Under the pieces are notes generated by a model, which saw only the letters and a list, made by a program, of their open reading frames with translations, searched no databases and was not told the DNA's origin. The position numbers and the translations under genes are program-made. Shown piece by piece: positions 1,358-40,857 of a stretch of 40,857 nucleotides of DNA (within the stretch, counting starts at the first letter, position 1; every line of letters starts with the position of its first letter). The DNA comes from a virus. Its lineage: Duplodnaviria; Caudoviricetes. Where the stretch lies: positions 1 to 40,857 of IMG/VR virus record IMGVR_UViG_3300017780_003951; one strand, written 5' to 3'.

Positions 1358-2440
1358 TTAAGACAATTTCAATTCAGCTAATTCAGCCATTAATAAATAT
1401 TGTTTCTCAAAGTTAGTTCCTTTATGTGATGTTTTTACTTTTTCTTTAAATTCTAAAATAGTACCAAAGAAACAACCACAAGAAACTTTAATTATATTTT
1501 CTTCTTTTGTTTTAAAAAACGTAGTGTTTCTGTTTGAAGAACCGAATTTACTAAATACACAAAAGTCATTATCTGATTTTAATTTTGCGTCACCATAAAC
1601 CTTTGCGTCACCAAAAACCTCTGCGTTACCATAAACCTCTGCGTCACCAAAAACCTTTGCGTCACCATAAACCTTTGCGTCACCATAAACCTTTGCGTCA
1701 CCATAAACCTTTGCGTCACCAAAAACCTCTGCGTTACCAAAAACCCATGCGCCACCAAAAACCCATGCGCCACCAAAAACCTTTGCGCCACCATAAACCT
1801 TTGCGTCACCAAAAACCTCTGCGTCACCAGAAACCCATGCGTTACCAAAAACCTTTGCGTTACCAGAAACCTTTGCGTTACCAAAAACCCATGCGACACC
1901 AGAAACCTCTGCGTTACCAGAAACCCATGCGTTACCATAAACCTTTGCGTTACCATAAACCTCTGCGCCACCAAAAACCCATGCGTCACCATAAACCTTT
2001 GCGTTACCAGAAACCTTTGCGTTACCAAAAACCTTTGCGCCACCATAAACCTTTGCGTCACCATAAACCCATGCGTCACCAAAAACCTTTGCGTCACCAG
2101 AAACCTCTGCGTTACCAGAAACCCATGCGCCACCAGAAACCTTTGCGCCACCAGAAACCTTTGCGTTACCATAAACCTCTGCGTCACCAGAAACCTTTGC
2201 GTCACCATAAACCTTTGCGTTACCATAAACCTCTGCGTCACCAGAAACCTTTGCGTTACCATAAACCTCTGCGTCACCAGAAACCCATGCGTTACCAGAA
2301 ATATTTTCTTCTTTTTCAACCCACCCTCCTAAAGTTCCAATCTCTATTGATTTGAATTTTTTAGTAGCTTTAATTCTAAATAATTTAACTCCAAATGCAT
2401 TGATTTTAAATTCTTCTGTTAACTCGAAATGCTTTTTCAT
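1358..2440 (-). CDS. Hexapeptide-repeat (predicted left-handed beta-helix) protein
   Basis: 39 full G-[NDGV]-A-[KEW]-V-[SYF] repeats between non-repetitive N-terminal (LFRIKA...LGGWVEKEENIS) and C-terminal (VSCGCFFG) caps. Confidence 0.85.
   Translation of the reverse strand: MKKHFELTEEFKINAFGVKLFRIKATKKFKSIEIGTLGGWVEKEENISGNAWVSGDAEVYGNAKVSGDAEVYGNAKVYGDAKVSGDAEVYGNAKVSGGAKVSGGAWVSGNAEVSGDAKVFGDAWVYGDAKVYGGAKVFGNAKVSGNAKVYGDAWVFGGAEVYGNAKVYGNAWVSGNAEVSGVAWVFGNAKVSGNAKVFGNAWVSGDAEVFGDAKVYGGAKVFGGAWVFGGAWVFGNAEVFGDAKVYGDAKVYGDAKVYGDAKVFGDAEVYGNAEVFGDAKVYGDAKLKSDNDFCVFSKFGSSNRNTTFFKTKEENIIKVSCGCFFGTILEFKEKVKTSHKGTNFEKQYLLMAELAELKLS
1586..2296. repeat. 18-bp tandem repeat, 39 full units plus a partial
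   Basis: Minus-strand unit GGT RDC GCA DRG GTT THT read directly. Confidence 0.95.
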
Positions 2441-2602: not shown

Positions 2603-3529
2603 TTAAAAAAGTGTGTTTTTAATTATATCCCCTTTACCGTTCCAAAATATAGACTCAAATACTTTCTTTTTATTATTAGTAGCTGATAAACTACTTCGGT
2701 GTGAAAACATTTCTATCTTTTCAAAAGGTGCATCGTACTCGCTTAAATAGGCTGGGTATTCTAAATCACTAAACCATTCATAAAAAGCATCGTGATTAAA
2801 ACCACCCTCTTTATATTCACCCGTTCCTTTGTATGGAATATCGCAATAAATTATCGGATTACTTCCTTGTATTAAAACTTTTTCGTAACTTGTGTTATTT
2901 GTCTGTAGGTTCTGTAGGTTCTGTAGGTTCTGTAGGTTCTGTAGGCGTGTTAAGTGTTCTACTAATTCTAAATTTTGAACATCGCATCTTTTTTCAGTTA
3001 TTTTTTTAACGTGGCTACAAAAAGCTAATCTTCGTTTTTGAATATCTTTTATTTTAAATATACCTTCCATATTTAAACCTAACTTAAACATTGAGGTTTC
3101 GTCTAAATTAACAATTAATTCGTGTGCAAGTCTTTTAAATTCTTCAATATCAGCACCATACAAATATGAATTTTGACTATTACCAAAACTCCAGCAACTC
3201 ATAACAAAACCAGAAAACCAATCCGCCTCGCTATTACTTTTATTTATTTGCTTTTTAAACTCTTCACGTGTTACCCATTCGTAAAATTTAGGTTCTAATT
3301 CTTTATTGTTTTTAATATACTCTACTAAACTATAAATATGTTTATTTAATTCGTTGTAGTGTACGTTAAAACGATAATCTCTTACTGCAGTAAAACTAAT
3401 TGAACCGCCACCACCAAATAAATCGTAAAAGTCTGTTGTTTTTTCGTGTCTGCTTGTAATTTTTTCTAATATTTGAGAAGCTAATTTTCTTTTACTTCCC
3501 ATATACGGTATTCCTAAATTTTGTTTCAT
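2603..3529 (-). CDS. DNA adenine methyltransferase (Dam/D12 class)
   Basis: PYMGSK, DLFGGGGS (SAM-binding motif I), YNELN, YCDIPY (DPPY-like motif IV). Confidence 0.85.
   Translation of the reverse strand: MKQNLGIPYMGSKRKLASQILEKITSRHEKTTDFYDLFGGGGSISFTAVRDYRFNVHYNELNKHIYSLVEYIKNNKELEPKFYEWVTREEFKKQINKSNSEADWFSGFVMSCWSFGNSQNSYLYGADIEEFKRLAHELIVNLDETSMFKLGLNMEGIFKIKDIQKRRLAFCSHVKKITEKRCDVQNLELVEHLTRLQNLQNLQNLQNLQTNNTSYEKVLIQGSNPIIYCDIPYKGTGEYKEGGFNHDAFYEWFSDLEYPAYLSEYDAPFEKIEMFSHRSSLSATNNKKKVFESIFWNGKGDIIKNTLF
2902..2945. repeat. 9-bp tandem repeat (TCTGTAGGT), 4 full copies plus 8 nt, inside the MTase, encoding LQN repeats
   Basis: Read directly. Confidence 0.95.
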
Positions 3530-11526: not shown

Positions 11527-11706
11527 ATGTGTACATTTTGCGGAAGAAATCACAATCAAAAACCTAAGACAAAAACAATTTATATTTATGATGGTAAAGA
11601 CAATGAGTTAGGTAGTATTGAAGTCAATGTTGATACAAGAGTTAGAGATTATCAAAAAGGATTGTATCTAAAGTATCATAGCTGGCAATACACAAAAGAG
11701 AATTAA
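11527..11706 (+). CDS. Hypothetical protein, 59 aa (MCTFCGRNH...)
   Basis: Hand-translated; fills gap exactly. Confidence 0.6.
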   Translation: MCTFCGRNHNQKPKTKTIYIYDGKDNELGSIEVNVDTRVRDYQKGLYLKYHSWQYTKEN

Positions 11707-11724
11707 CAATTAAACTATAACAAA

Positions 11725-12228
11725 ATGAAAAATTATGAAATTACAGAAGAACAGATTAAACAACTAGCAAAAGGAAACGCAAAAGTAAAAGAATGGTTTC
11801 CAGATGTTTTTGAAACAATAATAAAATCAGGCGAGTTTTGGTTTCATAGTACAGGATGTTTAGTATTGGTGTTTGGAGTAACCAAAGATAATGGAGGTAC
11901 TGTAAAATGCAAACATATTAATAATGAAGAACATTTTGCTTTTCACGGTATTGATTGTATGTATAGAAAAGCCACCGATTCAGAAGTATTAGAAGCTTTG
12001 AAAAATGAAGCTATTAAAAGAGGGTTTAAAGGTGGGGCTTTTTATATACATACTGGAGTAGGTATTATTAGACAAGTGTTCGGAGATAATTTTATTTATA
12101 ATTGTACAAAACAAGAACTAAGTATTAACGGATTTTGTATTTTAGAAAAAGGCAAATGGATTGCTGAAATAATTAAAACCTACACCAAAGAAGAAGCAGA
12201 GAAATTATTAAACGCTAAAATCATATAA
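11725..12228 (+). CDS. Hypothetical protein, 167 aa
   Basis: ORF track; C-terminal TKEEAEKLLNAKII. Confidence 0.8.
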   Translation: MKNYEITEEQIKQLAKGNAKVKEWFPDVFETIIKSGEFWFHSTGCLVLVFGVTKDNGGTVKCKHINNEEHFAFHGIDCMYRKATDSEVLEALKNEAIKRGFKGGAFYIHTGVGIIRQVFGDNFIYNCTKQELSINGFCILEKGKWIAEIIKTYTKEEAEKLLNAKII

Positions 12229-12229
12229 C

Positions 12230-12460
12230 ATGAAAGAATTAAAAGAACTACACGCGCAAATTAAAGACAAAAAAACCTTTAACAAAAACTTATCCGAAAA
12301 ATTATTTTTAAGTGAAGTAACAGTTGAAAACGCTTTTAAAACAAGTGGTAAATTTAAATCCAAACATTTGGAAGTTGTTAATCATTGGTTAAATGTAGAA
12401 CTACGTCTACAACAAAAAGCACTTGAAATGTGGGTAAAAGATTGGGAGATTGTTAATTAA
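12230..12460 (+). CDS. Hypothetical protein, 76 aa (possibly DNA-binding)
   Basis: ORF track; function speculative. Confidence 0.65.
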   Translation: MKELKELHAQIKDKKTFNKNLSEKLFLSEVTVENAFKTSGKFKSKHLEVVNHWLNVELRLQQKALEMWVKDWEIVN

Positions 12461-12475
12461 AACGAAAATGTTATT

Positions 12476-12583
12476 ATGAAAAGATTTTTTAAATGGGAAA
12501 GTAAACCCAACGGGAATTGTCCTGTACAGTCAAATGGGTGTTTTCTGTTTCTTTTGAAACCGAAATCAAAGTATATACGCTAA
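12476..12583 (+). CDS. 35-aa ORF ending at the first array core; possibly a remnant
   Basis: MKRFFKWESKPNGNCPVQ...KYIR; stop TAA lies within CTAAC 12580-12584. Confidence 0.4.
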   Translation: MKRFFKWESKPNGNCPVQSNGCFLFLLKPKSKYIR

Positions 12584-12708
12584 CGGCTCTCGGCTTTGCG
12601 AGGTTGCGTAGAATAAAAAATAACCATTACAAACACACAAATACTTTAAAATTATGAATAAAGTTTTAGAAAATCCCGAAAGCAGCAATGCGATAAAGCC
12701 GATGTTAG
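12580..12708. repeat. attC-like hairpin site 1 (129 bp)
   Basis: CTAAC-GGCTC-TCGGCTTT...TTGC / GCAA...AAAGCCGA-T-GTTAG. Confidence 0.8.
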
Positions 12709-12965
12709 GCGATGTGCCTTTCACTGATGTAGATGGCAAACTAATTTTTATTAATGATATAATTGAACAAACCAATTTCAATGGAGAGCAATATTTAGCA
12801 AGATACCAAGTAGTAGTTGATCCAGCAGATAATGAAGTTTGTCTTTTAATGCTTTATGGAAACGATAAAGCAATGAACCTTTTTAATAGCTATAAATATT
12901 CAGCTTTTGGAACTGTAATAAATGGCAAACTTCGTAAAGGTCGAGTTGTCGGGCATATCGCCTAA
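12654..12965 (+). CDS. Cassette 1 hypothetical protein (YopX-like motif DVDGKLIFINDII)
   Basis: Starts in loop of site 1; stop inside CTAAC of site 2. Confidence 0.75.
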   Translation: MNKVLENPESSNAIKPMLGDVPFTDVDGKLIFINDIIEQTNFNGEQYLARYQVVVDPADNEVCLLMLYGNDKAMNLFNSYKYSAFGTVINGKLRKGRVVGHIA

Positions 12966-13089
12966 CGTCAAAGCGTTGGCGATGTTGGGGATTAGAAAGT
13001 ACAAAAGCTCAAATAAAAACAAATGATAGTAGAAAGCACAAAAGCTCAAATTAAGCACGGAAGCCCCAATATTGCTAATGCATTGTTGG
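12962..13089. repeat. attC-like hairpin site 2 (128 bp)
   Basis: GCGTTGGCGATGTTGGGG 12973-12990 pairs with CCCCAATATTGCTAATGC 13064-13081 (4 G.T); right core GTTGG. Confidence 0.85.
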
Positions 13090-14174
13090 GTGCAGCTCCT
13101 GTCCACAAATTTCCTTATAACTGGAATTTAAAAGATGCAAACTTTACAAAAGATAAAGGCAAAGTATTTAGTTGTTTTGCTTGTGGTGGTGGTTCAACAA
13201 TGGGTTATAAATTGGCTGGATTTGATGTAATAGGACACAGTGATATTGATAAGAAAATGATTGAAGTTTATAAAATAAATCATAATCCTAAATATTCATT
13301 TTTAGAAAGCATTACAACTTTTGCTAAAAGAAAAGATTTGCCAAAAGAACTTTATGAACTTGATATTTTAGATGGTTCGCCACCTTGTAGCAGTTTTTCA
13401 ATGGCTGGAAATAGAGAAAAAGACTGGGGCAAAGAAAAAGTATTTAGAGAAGGTCAAGAATTACAAGTTTTAGACACATTATTCTTTGATTTTATTGATT
13501 TAGCAAAAGAATTACAACCGAAAGTAGTAGTAGCTGAAAACGTAAAAGGATTGCTATTAGGAGAAGCGAAAGAATACGTTATTAAGATTTACAAAGAGTT
13601 TGAAAAAGCTGGTTACTATTGCCAACACTTTTTGCTTGATGCTTCAAAAATGGGTGTGCCACAACGTAGAGAAAGAGTTTTCTTTATTGCATTAAGAAAA
13701 GATATAGCACAACCGTTTTTATATTATGCAGATATGTTTACAGAATTGCCAAAAATTGATATGCAATTTAACGAACCAACAATCACATTAAACGACATTA
13801 AAGACAATAGTGCTAATGATGAAAAATGCGAAATGACTGATGTTAAAAGAAACATCTGGAATAATAGAATTAATGGAGATAGTGATTTTAGCTGCACATT
13901 AGGGCGAATTGAAAACAGACCAAATTCAATGTTTAATAATAATTATTTATATGGTAACAAGCCACTAAATACTATTTCATCAAAAAAGAATGATGTGCTT
14001 TTTGATGAACCAAGACATTGTAATTTTAACGAAAACACATCCGGACAAACATATCCAAAAGATTATAACTTTTTAAATATGCCTTATTTGTATTTAATAG
14101 GAATGAGTGTGCCACCTGTAATGATGGCTCAAATTTCAACTAAAATATACGAACAATGGCTGTCGAAGTTGTAG
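13023..14174 (+). CDS. Cassette 2: DNA (cytosine-5)-methyltransferase
   Basis: FACGGG (I), GSPPC (IV), ENV (VI), QRRERVF (VIII), IGMSVPP (X). Confidence 0.93.
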   Translation: MIVESTKAQIKHGSPNIANALLGAAPVHKFPYNWNLKDANFTKDKGKVFSCFACGGGSTMGYKLAGFDVIGHSDIDKKMIEVYKINHNPKYSFLESITTFAKRKDLPKELYELDILDGSPPCSSFSMAGNREKDWGKEKVFREGQELQVLDTLFFDFIDLAKELQPKVVVAENVKGLLLGEAKEYVIKIYKEFEKAGYYCQHFLLDASKMGVPQRRERVFFIALRKDIAQPFLYYADMFTELPKIDMQFNEPTITLNDIKDNSANDEKCEMTDVKRNIWNNRINGDSDFSCTLGRIENRPNSMFNNNYLYGNKPLNTISSKKNDVLFDEPRHCNFNENTSGQTYPKDYNFLNMPYLYLIGMSVPPVMMAQISTKIYEQWLSKL

Positions 14175-14195
14175 ATGCGTCTTTTGGAATTGCAC

Positions 14196-14326
14196 CTAAC
14201 GTTGTATTATTGTCGTCAGGTGGCGACAAAATAAAAACTAATTTTTAAATTTAAGACAAATTATGAAAGCACAAAACAATATTTCAATTAAAGACCAAAC
14301 CGCCACTTGCGACAATAATGTGTTAG
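14196..14326. repeat. attC-like hairpin site 3 (131 bp)
   Basis: ATTATTGTCG-T-CAGGTGGCG 14206-14225 pairs with CGCCACTTG-CGACAATAAT 14301-14319; single bulged T. Confidence 0.85.
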
Positions 14327-14652
14327 TGGCTGGCATAATTTCATACGAAGGTCGTCAATGGTTAGCGGAAGAATATTCAGAAGAAATTGGAAACGGTGCT
14401 TGGATGGCAAGTCCAATTTATCATACCGATAATGGGCTAGAAGTTCGCCCTGCAGGTGGCAATTGGTGTTTTAAAAGTCGCGGAGCAGTTCCATCTATTT
14501 TAGAACCTAAAAAGCAAAAAGAAGTTTACGAAAGTTGGATTAAACATTTGCAAAAAACAATCAACTTTTTAAGAGGTAAATTTCCAGAAGTTGAATTGGA
14601 TTATAAAAATAAAATTTCGTTTTGGCAAAGTTTGGCAGATGCTTGCCACTAA
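14263..14652 (+). CDS. Cassette 3 hypothetical protein, 129 aa
   Basis: Starts in loop of site 3; stop inside next CTAAC. Confidence 0.75.
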   Translation: MKAQNNISIKDQTATCDNNVLVAGIISYEGRQWLAEEYSEEIGNGAWMASPIYHTDNGLEVRPAGGNWCFKSRGAVPSILEPKKQKEVYESWIKHLQKTINFLRGKFPEVELDYKNKISFWQSLADACH

Positions 14653-14777
14653 CGTTAAAGCATAACAGTAGTTTAGGGAAAGTAAGCCTAATCTATCGGA
14701 GTTAAAACCAAAGATTCCAAGTACAAAAATAATTATAAATCCAGCCTAATGCCTAAATTACTGTTATGCAGTGTTAG
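14649..14777. repeat. attC-like hairpin site 4 (129 bp)
   Basis: GCATAACAGTAGTTTAGG 14660-14677 pairs with CCTAAATTACTGTTATGC 14752-14769. Confidence 0.85.
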
Positions 14778-15114
14778 GGAATCGGTTACATATTTACAAG
14801 CTATGAAAATCACAGAAAAACAATACCAAAAAGCATTGCTTGTAATTAAGCAATACGAAACTCAACAAAAACCTAAAGATATTTTTGAATTATTAAGACA
14901 AGGTTATGATGCGGAAGTGATAAAATACATTATAGAAAAATGCGATTTTGAAATTGACGAAACGTTTTTTCATAGAGATATTGCTTACGGTCTTGAAGTA
15001 GTTATTGAAAGAAAAAAAGCAAACGAACCAATTGCGATTGGAGCTATTGAATTTTTAAAAGCAATAGAAAAACAAGATCGTTTAACTCATCAAGATTATC
15101 TTGATTTTGGCTGA
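14749..15114 (+). CDS. Cassette 4 hypothetical protein (internal MKITEKQY start also plausible)
   Basis: ORF track; start uncertain. Confidence 0.7.
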   Translation: MPKLLLCSVRESVTYLQAMKITEKQYQKALLVIKQYETQQKPKDIFELLRQGYDAEVIKYIIEKCDFEIDETFFHRDIAYGLEVVIERKKANEPIAIGAIEFLKAIEKQDRLTHQDYLDFG

Positions 15115-15131
15115 TTTTCTATAACTGTTCC

Positions 15132-15262
15132 CTAACGCCCCGCAGCTACAAGATGAACTGGATAAAACAAGCCGTGTCACTTCCGAGTTGCACAATCAAT
15201 ACTGAAACAAAACAATTAATAAATTAAAAACTAATACCCGTTTATATTGTAACTGCTGTTAG
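15132..15262. repeat. attC-like hairpin site 5 (131 bp)
   Basis: GCAGCTACAAGATGAACTGG 15142-15161 pairs imperfectly with CCCGTTTATATTGTAACTGC 15237-15256. Confidence 0.8.
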
Positions 15263-15290
15263 CAGACGTTGTGGGTATTTAAAACAAAAC

Positions 15291-15497
15291 GTGATTATGA
15301 AAAATTATTTAGCATTTTATGGAATGGTTTATTACCCATCAGGCGGAATGGATGACTTATTAGGGGATTTTGATACATTAGAGGAAGCTATCGAATCTAT
15401 TACAAAAAAAAATAATGAATCCGATGGAGGTAGCTGGAGTTACTGTTGGGCAAATGTTTATAGTTTACAAGATAGAATTGAAGTTTACACAACTTAA
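15291..15497 (+). CDS. Cassette 5 hypothetical protein (YYPSGGMDD motif)
   Basis: ORF track; entirely within cassette ends. Confidence 0.75.
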   Translation: MIMKNYLAFYGMVYYPSGGMDDLLGDFDTLEEAIESITKKNNESDGGSWSYCWANVYSLQDRIEVYTT

Positions 15498-15529
15498 TTT
15501 CTTCTCAAAACGATTAGTAACAATGTTTG

Positions 15530-15658
15530 CTAACGTTCGACGGCTATACGATGGTTGGGATAAGATAGCCGTAATTTTTCCGATTAACACAAATTATCCC
15601 GACACAAAACAGACTTTAAATTAAACAATTAACCCAACTATTGTATAACCGTTGTTAG
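15530..15658. repeat. attC-like hairpin site 6 (129 bp)
   Basis: ACGGCTATACGATGGTTGGG 15540-15559 pairs with CCCAACTATTGTATAACCGT 15633-15652. Confidence 0.85.
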
Positions 15659-15683
15659 CAGTAGTTATAATACTCAAATTATT

Positions 15684-15944
15684 ATGTACACAAAAGAACA
15701 ATTAAACAAATTAGGTTTTAAAGAAGTAAAAGACCAAGAAACAGGAATTATTGATTTTGTAAATAAAGTTACAAGCAATGTTCATTTAGTTTTAAGCCCA
15801 ATGTTAGAAGAATTATTTATTTGGATTTTAGAAGATGGTGGCGATGAAGATTCAGATGGAACAAAATTAATTATTGATACTTCTGATTTGGAGCAAGCAA
15901 TTGAATTATGTAAGATTATTGTCGGTGTTGACGATGGCTTCTAA
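15684..15944 (+). CDS. Cassette 6 acidic hypothetical protein, 86 aa
   Basis: ORF track; within cassette ends. Confidence 0.75.
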   Translation: MYTKEQLNKLGFKEVKDQETGIIDFVNKVTSNVHLVLSPMLEELFIWILEDGGDEDSDGTKLIIDTSDLEQAIELCKIIVGVDDGF

Positions 15945-15953
15945 TAATTACTG

Positions 15954-16140
15954 CTAACTCATTTATTGACGAATAAAAAGTAATACTTATTATACAAAAC
16001 CACGTACTATTAAATTTTCAGACAATACGCTTAAAAAAGAATATTGTCCGTTTTAGAATTAAATATAACTCAATATAATAAATAGAAATTATGAAAACAG
16101 AAAATACCGAAAACGAGGCATTGAACAAAAACGATGTTAG
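15954..16140. repeat. Atypical junction 7 (CTAACTC half-site; arms do not pair; 187 bp)
   Basis: CTAAC 15954 and GTTAG 16136 present but no matching arms seen. Confidence 0.6.
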
Positions 16141-16300
16141 CGGTTCGTTACTTTCGGATTTAAACTACTGGAAGCAAAGATGTTTATTAGCTGAAAAATG
16201 TTTAGAAGAAAGTCCTAATGACCCAGACATAACAAGTGAGCAAATTAAAGCTCATAATTCTTACCACAAGTTCATTAGTCACTACGGCAATGACCGCTAA
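16091..16300 (+). CDS. Cassette 7 hypothetical protein, 69 aa
   Basis: Reads through GTTAG core (NDVSGS); stop inside CTAAC. Confidence 0.75.
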   Translation: MKTENTENEALNKNDVSGSLLSDLNYWKQRCLLAEKCLEESPNDPDITSEQIKAHNSYHKFISHYGNDR

Positions 16301-16370
16301 CGTTCCCACGATAGGGGCTGTTTGCCTATGCGGTTAGTAGATTACGCCACTAGCTACAAACGTGTGCTAG
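16297..16370. repeat. Short, degenerate hairpin site 8 (74 bp; right core GCTAG)
   Basis: CTAAC-GTTCC-CACG ... CGTG-T-GCTAG; additional GTTAGTAG at 16333. Confidence 0.6.
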
Positions 16371-16418
16371 TAGCTGGACGGATATTAAAGATAAATTAAC
16401 TTATAAAAACTAAATAAA

Positions 16419-16598
16419 ATGGATAAGGAACTAAAAATTACAGATAGACAAATTGCACACCTAAGAGAAGAAATTAGCAGAGTGCAAAGACAAGTACAAT
16501 TAATCAAACAAGGCAAAACTCATTTAGGAGATAAAAATCGAATGGATATTGCTGTTGATTGTTGTAAAGAAATTGACCGTGTATTATGTGAATTGTAG
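16419..16598 (+). CDS. Cassette 8 hypothetical coiled-coil protein, 59 aa (MDKELKITDRQ...VLCEL)
   Basis: Hand-translated; fits between cassette ends 16366 and 16611. Confidence 0.7.
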   Translation: MDKELKITDRQIAHLREEISRVQRQVQLIKQGKTHLGDKNRMDIAVDCCKEIDRVLCEL

Positions 16599-16696
16599 TC
16601 TTGCTACTAACTCACAAATATACACAATACCATTTTCAACTATCTAATTTAGGTATTGCGTAAAAATAAATATTAACAATTAAATAAATAGAAATT

Positions 16697-16894
16697 ATGA
16701 AAACACACACAATTGACCAAGAAGCATTAAGAGAATGGCAACAAGAAGAAAAAGTAATTTTTGCAAGTAGCACAAAAGAAGACAAACAATTGCATTGTAC
16801 TTTAAGAGGCAGTTATGAGGTTTGGCATAAAAAAGAAATAGTTTTAGAAACTATGCAGGCAGGAAAAGCAGTTGAAAAATACAACTCAATATAA
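16697..16894 (+). CDS. Hypothetical protein, 65 aa (outside the array)
   Basis: ORF track; last plus-strand gene. Confidence 0.75.
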   Translation: MKTHTIDQEALREWQQEEKVIFASSTKEDKQLHCTLRGSYEVWHKKEIVLETMQAGKAVEKYNSI

Positions 16895-16896
16895 CA

Positions 16897-16930
16897 TAAA
16901 AAAACCCTAACATTACGCTAGGGTTTTTTT
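16897..16930. terminator. Bidirectional terminator between convergent blocks
   Basis: AAAAAAACCCTA-ACATTACGC-TAGGGTTTTTTT. Confidence 0.8.
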
Positions 16931-17316
16931 ATATAATTCACAATCATAACAATTACAAACATGATTATTAAAAGCCAAAATAGCTTTGTAGAAAGACTTT
17001 CTATTAGTTGCGTGTAGTCTTTTTCTTTTTCTTTAACTTCTTGCTTTAAATCGGTGTTTTTGGAAGTACTGTCTTTATAAATGATCCTTTCACTTGTATT
17101 GGTAAAAGTTGCCTTTGTATTATAATATTCTTTGCCGTTTATTAAAATTGGTTTTTCTAAATTAATAGGCTCTAAACTCCAGCCTTCTGAAAATTTAGTA
17201 GCATCTATATTTACAATTGAAGTGCTGTCTGTTTTTAATTCCGTTTCTGTATTGGTTTTTTTAACCGTTGCACACTCGATAAAAAATAAAGGGATTATTA
17301 AAATAAGTTTTTTCAT
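16918..17316 (-). CDS. Putative lipoprotein with C-terminal TM helix (unimolecular-spanin-like topology)
   Basis: MKKLILIIPLFFIE-C (atypical lipobox); C-terminal LFWLLIIMFVIVMIV; follows endolysin. Confidence 0.6.
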   Translation of the reverse strand: MKKLILIIPLFFIECATVKKTNTETELKTDSTSIVNIDATKFSEGWSLEPINLEKPILINGKEYYNTKATFTNTSERIIYKDSTSKNTDLKQEVKEKEKDYTQLIESLSTKLFWLLIIMFVIVMIVNYIKKP

Positions 17317-17385
17317 TGTTTTTTACCAAAGATAAGAAATAAGTTGTATATTTGATTTTCATAATTAGTTTTTTTTTAGTTAATT

Positions 17386-17419
17386 AAATCCGTAGTATTA
17401 TTTATTACGGATTTTTTTT
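17386..17419 (+). terminator. Hairpin with T-run
   Basis: AAATCCGTA...TACGGATTTTTTTT. Confidence 0.55.
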
Positions 17420-40397: not shown

Positions 40398-40591
40398 GGT
40401 TTTTTAAATATTTTTATAAATATAAATACTCCGCAACTTATCCAAAGTAAGTTGTGTATTACTAACAAAAAAACAGTACTAGAATCACTCCACTCATTTA
40501 CGTTAAAATTAAATTCTACACTAGCAAATGCTAAATAAAACATTATACTTATTTGAATAGCAAATAAAAACATTTTTAGTATTTGTTTCAT
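40394..40591 (-). CDS. Small two-TM membrane protein
   Basis: Two hydrophobic segments; ATGA coupling at both ends. Confidence 0.65.
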   Translation of the reverse strand: MKQILKMFLFAIQISIMFYLAFASVEFNFNVNEWSDSSTVFLLVIHNLLWISCGVFIFIKIFKKP

Positions 40592-40761
40592 AGCTTATGT
40601 ATTTCTTCTTTTACTTCTTGGTAGTGATTTATTTTTGCAAGACTTTTAAAGTCTTCATAACCTACTTCTATTGAATTTATAATTTCATCTACGCAAATTA
40701 ACGCTAATATTTTTAAGCCAAACTTATCTACTAACTCTACAGCTTCTTCTCTTGCACTCAT
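40588..40761 (-). CDS. Hypothetical protein, 57 aa (MSAREEAVELV...HYQEVKEEIHKL)
   Basis: Hand-translated; tandem paralog of the end-spanning gene. Confidence 0.75.
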   Translation of the reverse strand: MSAREEAVELVDKFGLKILALICVDEIINSIEVGYEDFKSLAKINHYQEVKEEIHKL

Positions 40762-40796
40762 AGCTTATGTATTTCTTCTTTTACTTCTTGGTAGTG
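40588..40796. repeat. 39-bp perfect direct repeat (40588-40626 and 40758-40796)
   Basis: TCATAGCTTATGTATTTCTTCTTTTACTTCTTGGTAGTG occurs twice. Confidence 0.95.
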
Positions 40797-40857
40797 TTTA
40801 TAGATAGTTGTGTTTACTCCGCCTAATAATTTATAATGACTTTTTAATATTTTATCA
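40758..40857 (-). CDS. C-terminal part of the end-spanning gene (DKILKSHY...HYQEVKEEIHKL)
   Basis: Continues the ORF at 126..1 if 2 nt are restored. Confidence 0.7.
   Translation of the reverse strand, partial: DKILKSHYKLLGGVNTTIYKHYQEVKEEIHKL

Follow-up and report, generated by a model that had tools for sequence, protein, structure and literature searches.

The genome described here, IMG/VR record IMGVR_UViG_3300017780_003951 (Caudoviricetes; 40,857 nt, a stretch that we call the window at its full length), is rated a complete virus genome, and between positions 12580 and 15658 it carries six hairpin-forming sites that are the joints of a gene-cassette array. Profile matches in the window comprise terminase, portal, capsid, tape measure, holin, a CHAP endolysin, primase-helicase, helicase, single-strand binding protein (SSB) and exonuclease; the array itself lies within a plus-strand block of small genes (11.2–16.9 kb) that converges on the lysis genes. 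Because DNA similar to the array region occurs mostly in Flavobacterium phages (86 of 110 related records), the host is probably flavobacterial. An assembly artefact was ruled out: contigs from a second study cover 11600–13005, 13604–16327 and 16299–17400 with 0 differences.

All six sites are on the plus strand, and their coordinates and lengths are exactly those of the original prediction: site 1 at 12580–12708 (129 nt; plus being the predicted folded strand; E 6.7e-11, in a covariance model introduced below), site 2 at 12962–13089 (128 nt; E 1.8e-18), site 3 at 14196–14326 (131 nt; E 2.7e-11), site 4 at 14649–14777 (129 nt; E 4.1e-09), site 5 at 15132–15262 (131 nt; E 3.1e-09) and site 6 at 15530–15658 (129 nt; E 5.7e-16). 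Each reads from CTAACG to T-GTTRG; the core inversion CTAAC...GTTRG is present in six of six, with a loose fit to the 7-mer consensus RYYYAAC...GTTRRRY. Several further details that had been read from the sequence also hold: the arms differ between sites and each pairs with its own partner, the internal loop beside the core is asymmetric (an arm register offset of 4 in sites 1, 5 and 6, and of 3 in sites 2, 3 and 4), sites 5 and 6 have a C.A mismatch in common, and site 3 has a bulged T, which is kept by four other copies of this hairpin. What did not hold is the likening of such a mismatch or bulge to the extrahelical bases of integron attC sites: these two features are not a general equivalent, and the near-invariant marks are instead two G.T pairs, one at arm position 15 and one at position 11 of an outer stem that is described below.

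These marks were counted in a wider collection of sites. At score 10 our hairpin scanner gave 16 false positives per 304,700 shuffled bases, against 294 hits in 1,500,723 real ones; the counts use oriented sites that score at least 11–13 and leave out the window's own contig (L248), and the phage seed sites were length-selected by the search pattern, whereas the bacterial pattern was not length-selected. Pairing at 14 or more of 20 arm positions without a bulge is seen in 134 of 163 phage sites, and an ungapped single register also in 171 of 183 bacterial sites; the inner G.T pair is present in 127 of those 134 and 149 of those 171, as counted by a scanner in which G.T and A.C carry equal scores. 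No Rfam family reached its gathering score in the window (two chance microRNA matches had E 0.6–0.8), and a general repeat finder did not group the sites as a family.

The left border of a cassette is the C of one CTAAC and its right border the AA of the next; within it lie the hairpin, the GTTAG core, a gene, and an end that is complementary to the 15 nt after the cassette's own GTT. The bases that follow each GTTAG are the reverse complement of those that precede the next CTAAC, and no other core fits as well. The resulting outer stem has 15 bp and ends at position 16 (128 phage and 90 bacterial cassettes); its position 11, which was not used in cassette selection, is a G.T pair in 121 of 128 phage cassettes, 83 of 90 bacterial cassettes and six of the eight in the window. 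These stems and the fixed G.T pairs were not part of the original prediction, nor were a seventh site, a site remnant, two attI-like junctions and the translation starts within loops.

All cassettes and their open reading frames (ORFs) are on the plus strand. Cassette 1 (12584–12965) holds site 1 and ORF 12654–12965, of 103 amino acids and no family, whose ATG is in the loop and whose stop is within the next core. Cassette 2 (12966–14199) pairs site 2 with ORF 13023–14174, which also starts in its loop and encodes a C5 cytosine methyltransferase (PF00145, E 3.9e-47; TIGR00675 above cut-off; 79% DNA identity to gp004 of phage tooticki6-1). Cassette 3 (14200–14652) has site 3 and ORF 14263–14652, again with its ATG in the loop (129 amino acids, no family, 13 protein relatives); cassette 4 (14653–15135) has site 4 and ORF 14803–15114 (103 amino acids, no family); cassette 5 (15136–15533) has site 5 and ORF 15297–15497 (66 amino acids, phrog_1411); and cassette 6 (15534–15957) has site 6 and ORF 15684–15944 (86 amino acids, no family). 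The ORF of cassette 7 (16091–16300, 69 amino acids) has its stop in the next core and its start inside a 3' site remnant (16048–16140) that has lost its 5' arm and is 84% identical to an intact site (L037:12644–12761). Cassette 8 (16301–16610) carries ORF 16419–16598 (59 amino acids) behind a short seventh site at 16297–16370: this is 74 nt long, has a degenerate right core, GCTAG, and matches the model weakly (E 0.061), it is 82% identical to an intact 74-nt site in another contig (L089), and its outer stem pairs with 16607. At the left flank of the array, 12569–12583 on the plus strand is probably the displaced half of the original insertion site, with no complementary partner seen upstream. 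A weak model match that involves loop positions only (12450–12511, E 0.99) possibly marks an older site, now eroded, at the distal end of the array.

Profile searches gave no functional family for seven of the eight cargo ORFs, beyond phrog_1411, and no interbacterial-immunity family among them. The methyltransferase cargo likely serves against host restriction; in phage tooticki6-1 the array region (L002, 1.4–8.2 kb) holds four methyltransferase genes. A second methyltransferase of the window, of the D12 adenine class, lies outside the cassette array (2603–3529, minus strand).

Another key observation is that these cassettes change their neighbours at a precise place. Cassette 3 has four copies (L238 and L249–L251) with the same hairpin type behind four different upstream neighbours, the change falling at the core (the 3' arm is shortened in L238), while five other cassette ends of its kind (L252 included) stand before five different downstream neighbours, with divergence directly after AAC. 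Three copies of cassette 6 keep the whole hairpin and two keep the 3' arm only, and downstream divergence follows AAC in all five; for cassette 4 there is one copy, with a similar 3' half and a new downstream site. Among 174 other phage sites, nine of ten pairs with a common cassette end have different following hairpins, and five groups have a common hairpin and downstream gene behind different neighbours; a whole-cassette comparison yielded only six pairs and was uninformative. Furthermore, contigs from wastewater and lake metagenomes begin or end at left cores (12963, 12968, 14197, 14201, 14656 and 15958). Since copies switch neighbours there, we place the main crossover within the AAC of the left core (GTT on the minus strand), to these three bases rather than to a single one, and regard the hairpin plus its downstream gene as the mobile unit; the identity that is common at the break is ~4–6 nt only. 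A crossover at the right GTTAG core, as the canonical order would have it, was dropped, as the neighbour changes sit mostly at the left core. Exchange at the right core also occurs, and opposite-strand recombination and independent capture are candidate explanations for it. Among the copies of cassettes 3 and 6, the unpaired bases after AAC-G vary more than the arms, possibly as a footprint of strand exchange or because they are unconstrained. No sites accompany two further homologs of the cassette 6 gene (L246, L247), which are plain phage genes and may represent a pool from which cassettes form.

That copies change neighbours at the left TAAC and mostly keep the upstream hairpin means that the genes are inverted relative to their sites. 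With sites oriented by the long spacer and single-gene cassettes scored, the gene is inverted with respect to the chromosomal order in 82 of 83 phage cassettes, in all four scored cassettes of the window, and in seven of 46 cassettes from bacterial genomes; several of these seven look phage-derived, and three are methyltransferase-like. Inverted cassettes are thus almost confined to phage-type DNA, and we therefore suppose that their pool is kept among phages. These data bear on whether the array is a frozen relic, acquired from a host or a large phage, with sites that small phages no longer use. Such a relic would account for the lack of a tyrosine recombinase, which was not found anywhere in the window with PF00589 or with a recombinase profile built here, for the remnant and truncated sites (16048–16140; L241, L242), and for the array being identical, over the pieces compared, in contigs from two runs (the window itself possibly stems from one of them); it is hard to square with near-identical cassettes that have different neighbours and exact joints in many phage and metagenome contigs, with arms and G.T marks that are intact in six divergent sites, or with the near-restriction of inverted cassettes to phage-type DNA, and we consider it unlikely.

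The sites in the window belong to the same family as sites that adjoin a short recombinase in Bacteroidota chromosomes. A pattern scan of bacterial genomes returned 120 loci, and the best 80 of these 120 are nearly all titled Bacteroidota; arrays contain up to 16 same-strand sites per 20 kb in canonical order, i.e., gene, YTAAC, 1 nt, arm, loop, arm, 5 nt, GTTAG. A covariance model built from 45 Bacteroidota chromosomal sites only, whose E-values are rough, finds all six window sites on the plus strand (E 1.8e-18 to 4.1e-9; the next match has E 0.06) and 101 sites in 84 phage sources; site 2 is the closest of the six to chromosomal sites (77% to L139). By motif, a tyrosine recombinase is present in 13 of the 80 long chromosomal loci, and in 12 of these 13 it is co-oriented with the array, at its head. 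These recombinases match NF040815 and TIGR02249 best, mostly below the cut-offs, and the TIGR02249 match falls into two pieces: in the comparison with VchIntIA (2A3V), a 20-residue stretch faces 62 residues, the protein being ~40 residues shorter, and hence the IntI insertion is absent from the short recombinase. Among 41 genomes from the genus of G001 (a genome whose locus L128 carries the title Flavobacterium zubiriense), sites are present in 36, the recombinase in 26 and both in 25; all 12 genomes with at least 14 sites hold the recombinase. These associations, drawn from sequence comparison, make it likely that the sites are substrates of the short recombinase. One genome (G034:C1, 885170–1106777; 54 sites genome-wide) departs from the co-oriented majority, its recombinase gene running divergently from a long array. 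Relatives of the recombinase are also found on Acinetobacter, Klebsiella and Aeromonas plasmids, at 48–49% identity over ~70% of the length, and on a Chryseobacterium plasmid (L258, 13765–15041) a group II intron maturase lies downstream of a site array, recalling attC-targeting introns.

The original prediction was of selection on single-strand structure, in the manner of attC but with another geometry, and it named folding against shuffled controls and covariation among homologs as its tests. Against 150 dinucleotide shuffles, RNA folding of the plus strand gave z = -1.8, -3.5, -5.2, -5.0, -2.9 and -4.2 for sites 1–6, i.e., better than shuffles in five of six (for site 1, seven of the 150 shuffles were as low), and DNA folding gave -0.2, -0.4, -5.3, -3.1, -0.4 and -1.2; a fold better than shuffles was thus seen for RNA at five sites, and for DNA at sites 3 and 4 only. 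With the loop held open, the plus strand is more stable than the minus strand in all six sites, in both circle and array form. Covariation is strong: in 101 model-aligned phage sites, 92.4% of cells are paired versus 67.7% when shuffled, and there are 410 two-sided changes versus 137 (none of 500 shuffles was as high; controls with a slid register gave 34–46%). This alignment was fitted to the structure, and was used since a fixed-offset version mixed two registers. Taken with the recombinase-adjacent chromosomal family and the exchange at cores, the covariation supports selection on an attC-like single-strand fold with a different geometry.

Bearing in mind that five of the six sites surpassed shuffles as sense-strand RNA and two of the six as DNA, we asked whether the hairpins might be mRNA control elements (for termination, processing or translation coupling), with genes swapped at the cores by homologous recombination through phage proteins. 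The phage does encode an exonuclease and SSB, exchange is seen at both cores, and start codons do lie in loops: three of the six full sites hold the start of the next gene, the predicted starts inside sites being those of ORFs 12654, 13023, 14263 and 16091, and the first ATG falls within the site in 39 of 83 phage cassettes. These in-loop ATGs use all three frames (25, 4 and 10 cases), which is to be expected if the start and the gene travel together. The strand relationship argues otherwise: the G.T-bearing, wobble-favoured strand is sense in 82 of 83 phage cassettes but antisense in 39 of 46 from bacterial genomes, i.e., polarity follows the site and not the transcript; an mRNA fold therefore cannot explain both, and a single-stranded DNA substrate can. 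The G.T-bearing strand has AA|C at its 5' foot, followed by unpaired bases, and the recombined bottom strand of attC has the same AA|C foot with unpaired bases after it. In addition, identity of only ~4–6 nt at the break, an outer stem that is complete only when the two ends of a cassette meet, and the proximity of the same sites to a dedicated recombinase are not what an mRNA element would call for. We judge this explanation distinctly improbable: the functional fold is likely single-stranded DNA, not mRNA, and the hairpins may have a secondary role in mRNA. A promoter scan was uninformative (34 matches versus 30.5 +/- 5.1 in shuffles), and among the read sets listed no RNA dataset with the window sequence was found.

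The predicted conservation of length at 128–131 bp proved to reflect the commonest class, of 125–132 nt, to which 101 of 163 phage and 149 of 183 bacterial sites belong. Strict selection on spacing, the other part of that claim, is not shown, because sites of ~120, ~91, ~75 and 51 nt exist and because the loop has a periodicity of 18–19 and 37 nt: 3-mer matches at lag 37 exceed shuffled values 10.3-fold in bacterial, 3.7-fold in phage and 3.1-fold in the six window sites. The 128- and 91-nt classes are one 37-nt unit apart; shared descent explains the length class.

Two junctions in the array lack a hairpin and resemble an attI site. Downstream of chromosomal recombinase genes a TATA-like box lies nine bases before the GTT of the first core, which on the phage sense strand corresponds to AAC, T, four bases, WATW. 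Using a matrix from 11 recombinase-adjacent junctions, attI-like junction a (15954–15972, minus strand; CTAAC then T) ranks first of 377 TAAC cores, and junction b (16607–16625, minus strand), the array end, ranks third, a moderate match. In five other contigs the cassette end of junction a is followed by a G-starting site, and a homologous end to that of junction b is followed in L087 by a hairpin site. T follows AAC at 26 of 128 phage junctions, and such junctions close many arrays; in two large-phage lineages an attI-like junction directly precedes the recombinase gene. The array thus appears to be a fusion of two blocks that both end in an attI-like junction; the second block opens with a damaged site. 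Cultured Flavobacterium phages FCL-2 (L259, 4574–5480) and tooticki6-1 have unannotated site arrays that end in an attI-like junction. Beyond the array end, a short inverted repeat with A/T runs on its flanks and CTAAC inside (16898–16931) lies between the converging array and lysis genes; by eye it resembles a two-way terminator, it was not among the matches listed in the promoter scan, and its attI score is low.

The cassettes of the array are mobile among phages, and we consider it probable that the sites are attC-type substrates, in the form of folded single-stranded DNA, of a short, Xer-like tyrosine recombinase that is supplied in trans. We hypothesize that the recombinase is borrowed from a Bacteroidota host or from a co-infecting large phage. 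The plus strand would fold; in the excised circle a long stem would form, in which the 15-bp outer arm and a 20-bp inner arm flank a central region of 6 versus 10 nt whose bases after the cut are unpaired. Strand and register may be marked by a G.T pair in each arm rather than by flipped-out bases, and cleavage would fall at AA|C (G|TT on the complementary strand). The entry point for new cassettes would be an attI-like junction where the operon ends on its 3' side, and inversion would allow the array to be read from an upstream phage promoter, each cassette bringing its own translation start. The broader idea, that small Bacteroidota phages share an integrase-free exchange, based on attI and inverted cassettes, in which each gene starts within its own site hairpin and a hijacked Xer-like host recombinase reads single-stranded DNA via two symmetric G.T pairs rather than flipped-out bases, is in our estimation an even bet; were it correct, it would represent a second, independent solution to structure-specific DNA recombination, and would let phages take up methyltransferases and other counter-defence genes as needed.

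Several observations weigh against the proposal that the sites are recombinase substrates. As DNA, four of the six sites fold no better than shuffles, and the recombinase is missing from the phage itself, as noted; among 24 array-bearing phage records only three have it, all of 76–170 kb. No report that this recombinase family acts on these sites was found in print, nor was a circular cassette or excision joint among the joints listed (eight runs, all contigs). Not every exchange sits at the left core: a copy of cassette 1 in L253 has the same gene and outer stem with another hairpin, the hairpin of cassette 8 is replaced at the other core in L087, two pairs among the 174 other phage sites have a common downstream part under different hairpins, and at least three of ten near-full-length relatives of ORF 14263 have a clearly different N-terminus. 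Finally, the attI matrix is weak: three of its 11 leave-one-out scores are near or below 1, and the core that ranks second, 25179, is in a structural gene.

Two features of the window that lie away from the array may be recorded here: a 360-amino-acid protein (1358–2440, minus strand) built on an 18-bp tandem repeat (at least 39 overlapping copies), with a match to the YdcK beta-solenoid, and near-identical short repeats at both ends of the record (89–123, 40588–40629 and 40727–40799).

Canonical attC sites have an unpaired central spacer of ~5 nt on both sides; here it is 5 versus 1 (offset 4), or at offset 3. In canonical order a gene lies upstream of its own attC, in the same orientation; the phage cassettes are arranged otherwise, and no gene with the IntI-specific insertion stands beside the array, as it does in a complete integron. 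As a site cluster without an integrase the array resembles a cluster of attC sites lacking integron-integrases (CALIN), though one made of non-canonical sites. Much is nevertheless shared with classical integron arrays as portrayed in the accessible text on IntI1 and VchIntIA (PMC3053210, PMC8876359): GTT/AAC cores, an imperfect hairpin with a variable loop, complementary cassette ends, a crossover placed at G|TT, one favoured strand and, as a putative counterpart of attI, a simple attI-like site at the array end. By the same texts the family in the window differs in its 5-versus-1 central loop, in two fixed G.T pairs instead of extrahelical bases, in its 15-bp outer stem, in a recombinase without the IntI insertion, and in a phage gene that is inverted and often starts in the loop. 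This comparison bears on whether the sites are simply canonical attC served by a classical IntI, as in a plain phage CALIN. The GTTRRRY-like cores and the complementarity of cassette ends would fit, and phage CALINs are in print (PMC9892861, in its accessible part); the central loop of 5 versus 1, the absence of a conserved extrahelical base, and adjacent recombinases with TIGR02249 scores under the cut-off and no IntI insertion do not fit, and we regard this as highly improbable.

A short member of the same geometry has in fact been listed as canonical: Qi et al. 2023 (PMC9892861) describe a CALIN in Polaribacter phage P12002L, and their P12002L_attC1 is a 51-nt site with the same geometry and strand relation, methyltransferase cargo and an integrase-free phage. 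Within the accessible text of that paper, this is the one site of six for which recombination with IntI1 (IntI1 x attI1) was not shown, and the family, the inversion and a cognate recombinase are not described. The sites of our family thus occur in three cultured phages, tooticki6-1, FCL-2 and P12002L.

Also close in print is rAID-1 of Bacteroidales (Ross et al., 10.1101/471110), in which, according to the part of the text available, a XerD-like recombinase heads co-directional genes with intergenic repeats 'reminiscent of integrons'. The recombinases of the B. ovatus and P. distasonis immunity arrays are 44% identical to the short recombinase used here, and by eye the repeats have the same short-spacer/long-spacer layout. 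A 5' XerD-like recombinase with co-directional genes downstream, as in rAID-1, is absent from the window phage and present at the chromosomal relatives of its sites. Differences are that the rAID-1 repeats are ~45 nt long with a CATTA right core, and that the arrays are chromosomal, with immunity cargo and canonical gene order; the published text, as far as it was available, contains no structural or recombination analysis of the repeats. Two arrays of this type (L256, 7825–14601; L257, 7825–13843) have ~45-nt hairpins, and our site model has no match in them. Judging from sequence, rAID-1 is a sister system with a related recombinase.

In the open-access literature, a scope that takes in neither subscription papers nor the supplementary motif logos of the rAID-1 study, we found no account of these sites as a family, nor of phage cassettes in inverted orientation. 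What this analysis adds is the mapping of break points on cassettes of the window itself, the pair of G.T marks, the attI-like junctions, and the strand test against an mRNA reading. As far as the accessible texts go, cassette recombination has been taken to require the IntI insertion and the extrahelical bases of attC (PMC8138268, PMC3053210), and complete integrons are all but absent from Bacteroidetes in the results of IntegronFinder 2.0 (PMC9024848). If the sites are active, a major phylum and its phages hold an overlooked gene-capture system with another recognition code; phages would exploit it in trans, and many of the odd N-terminal extensions seen in flavobacterial phage proteins would be sequence of recombination sites. 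Phage-host pairs that are in culture allow a direct test. The array works like an integron cassette array and departs from canonical attC in its extrahelical bases, its spacer geometry, its orientation and its integrase.

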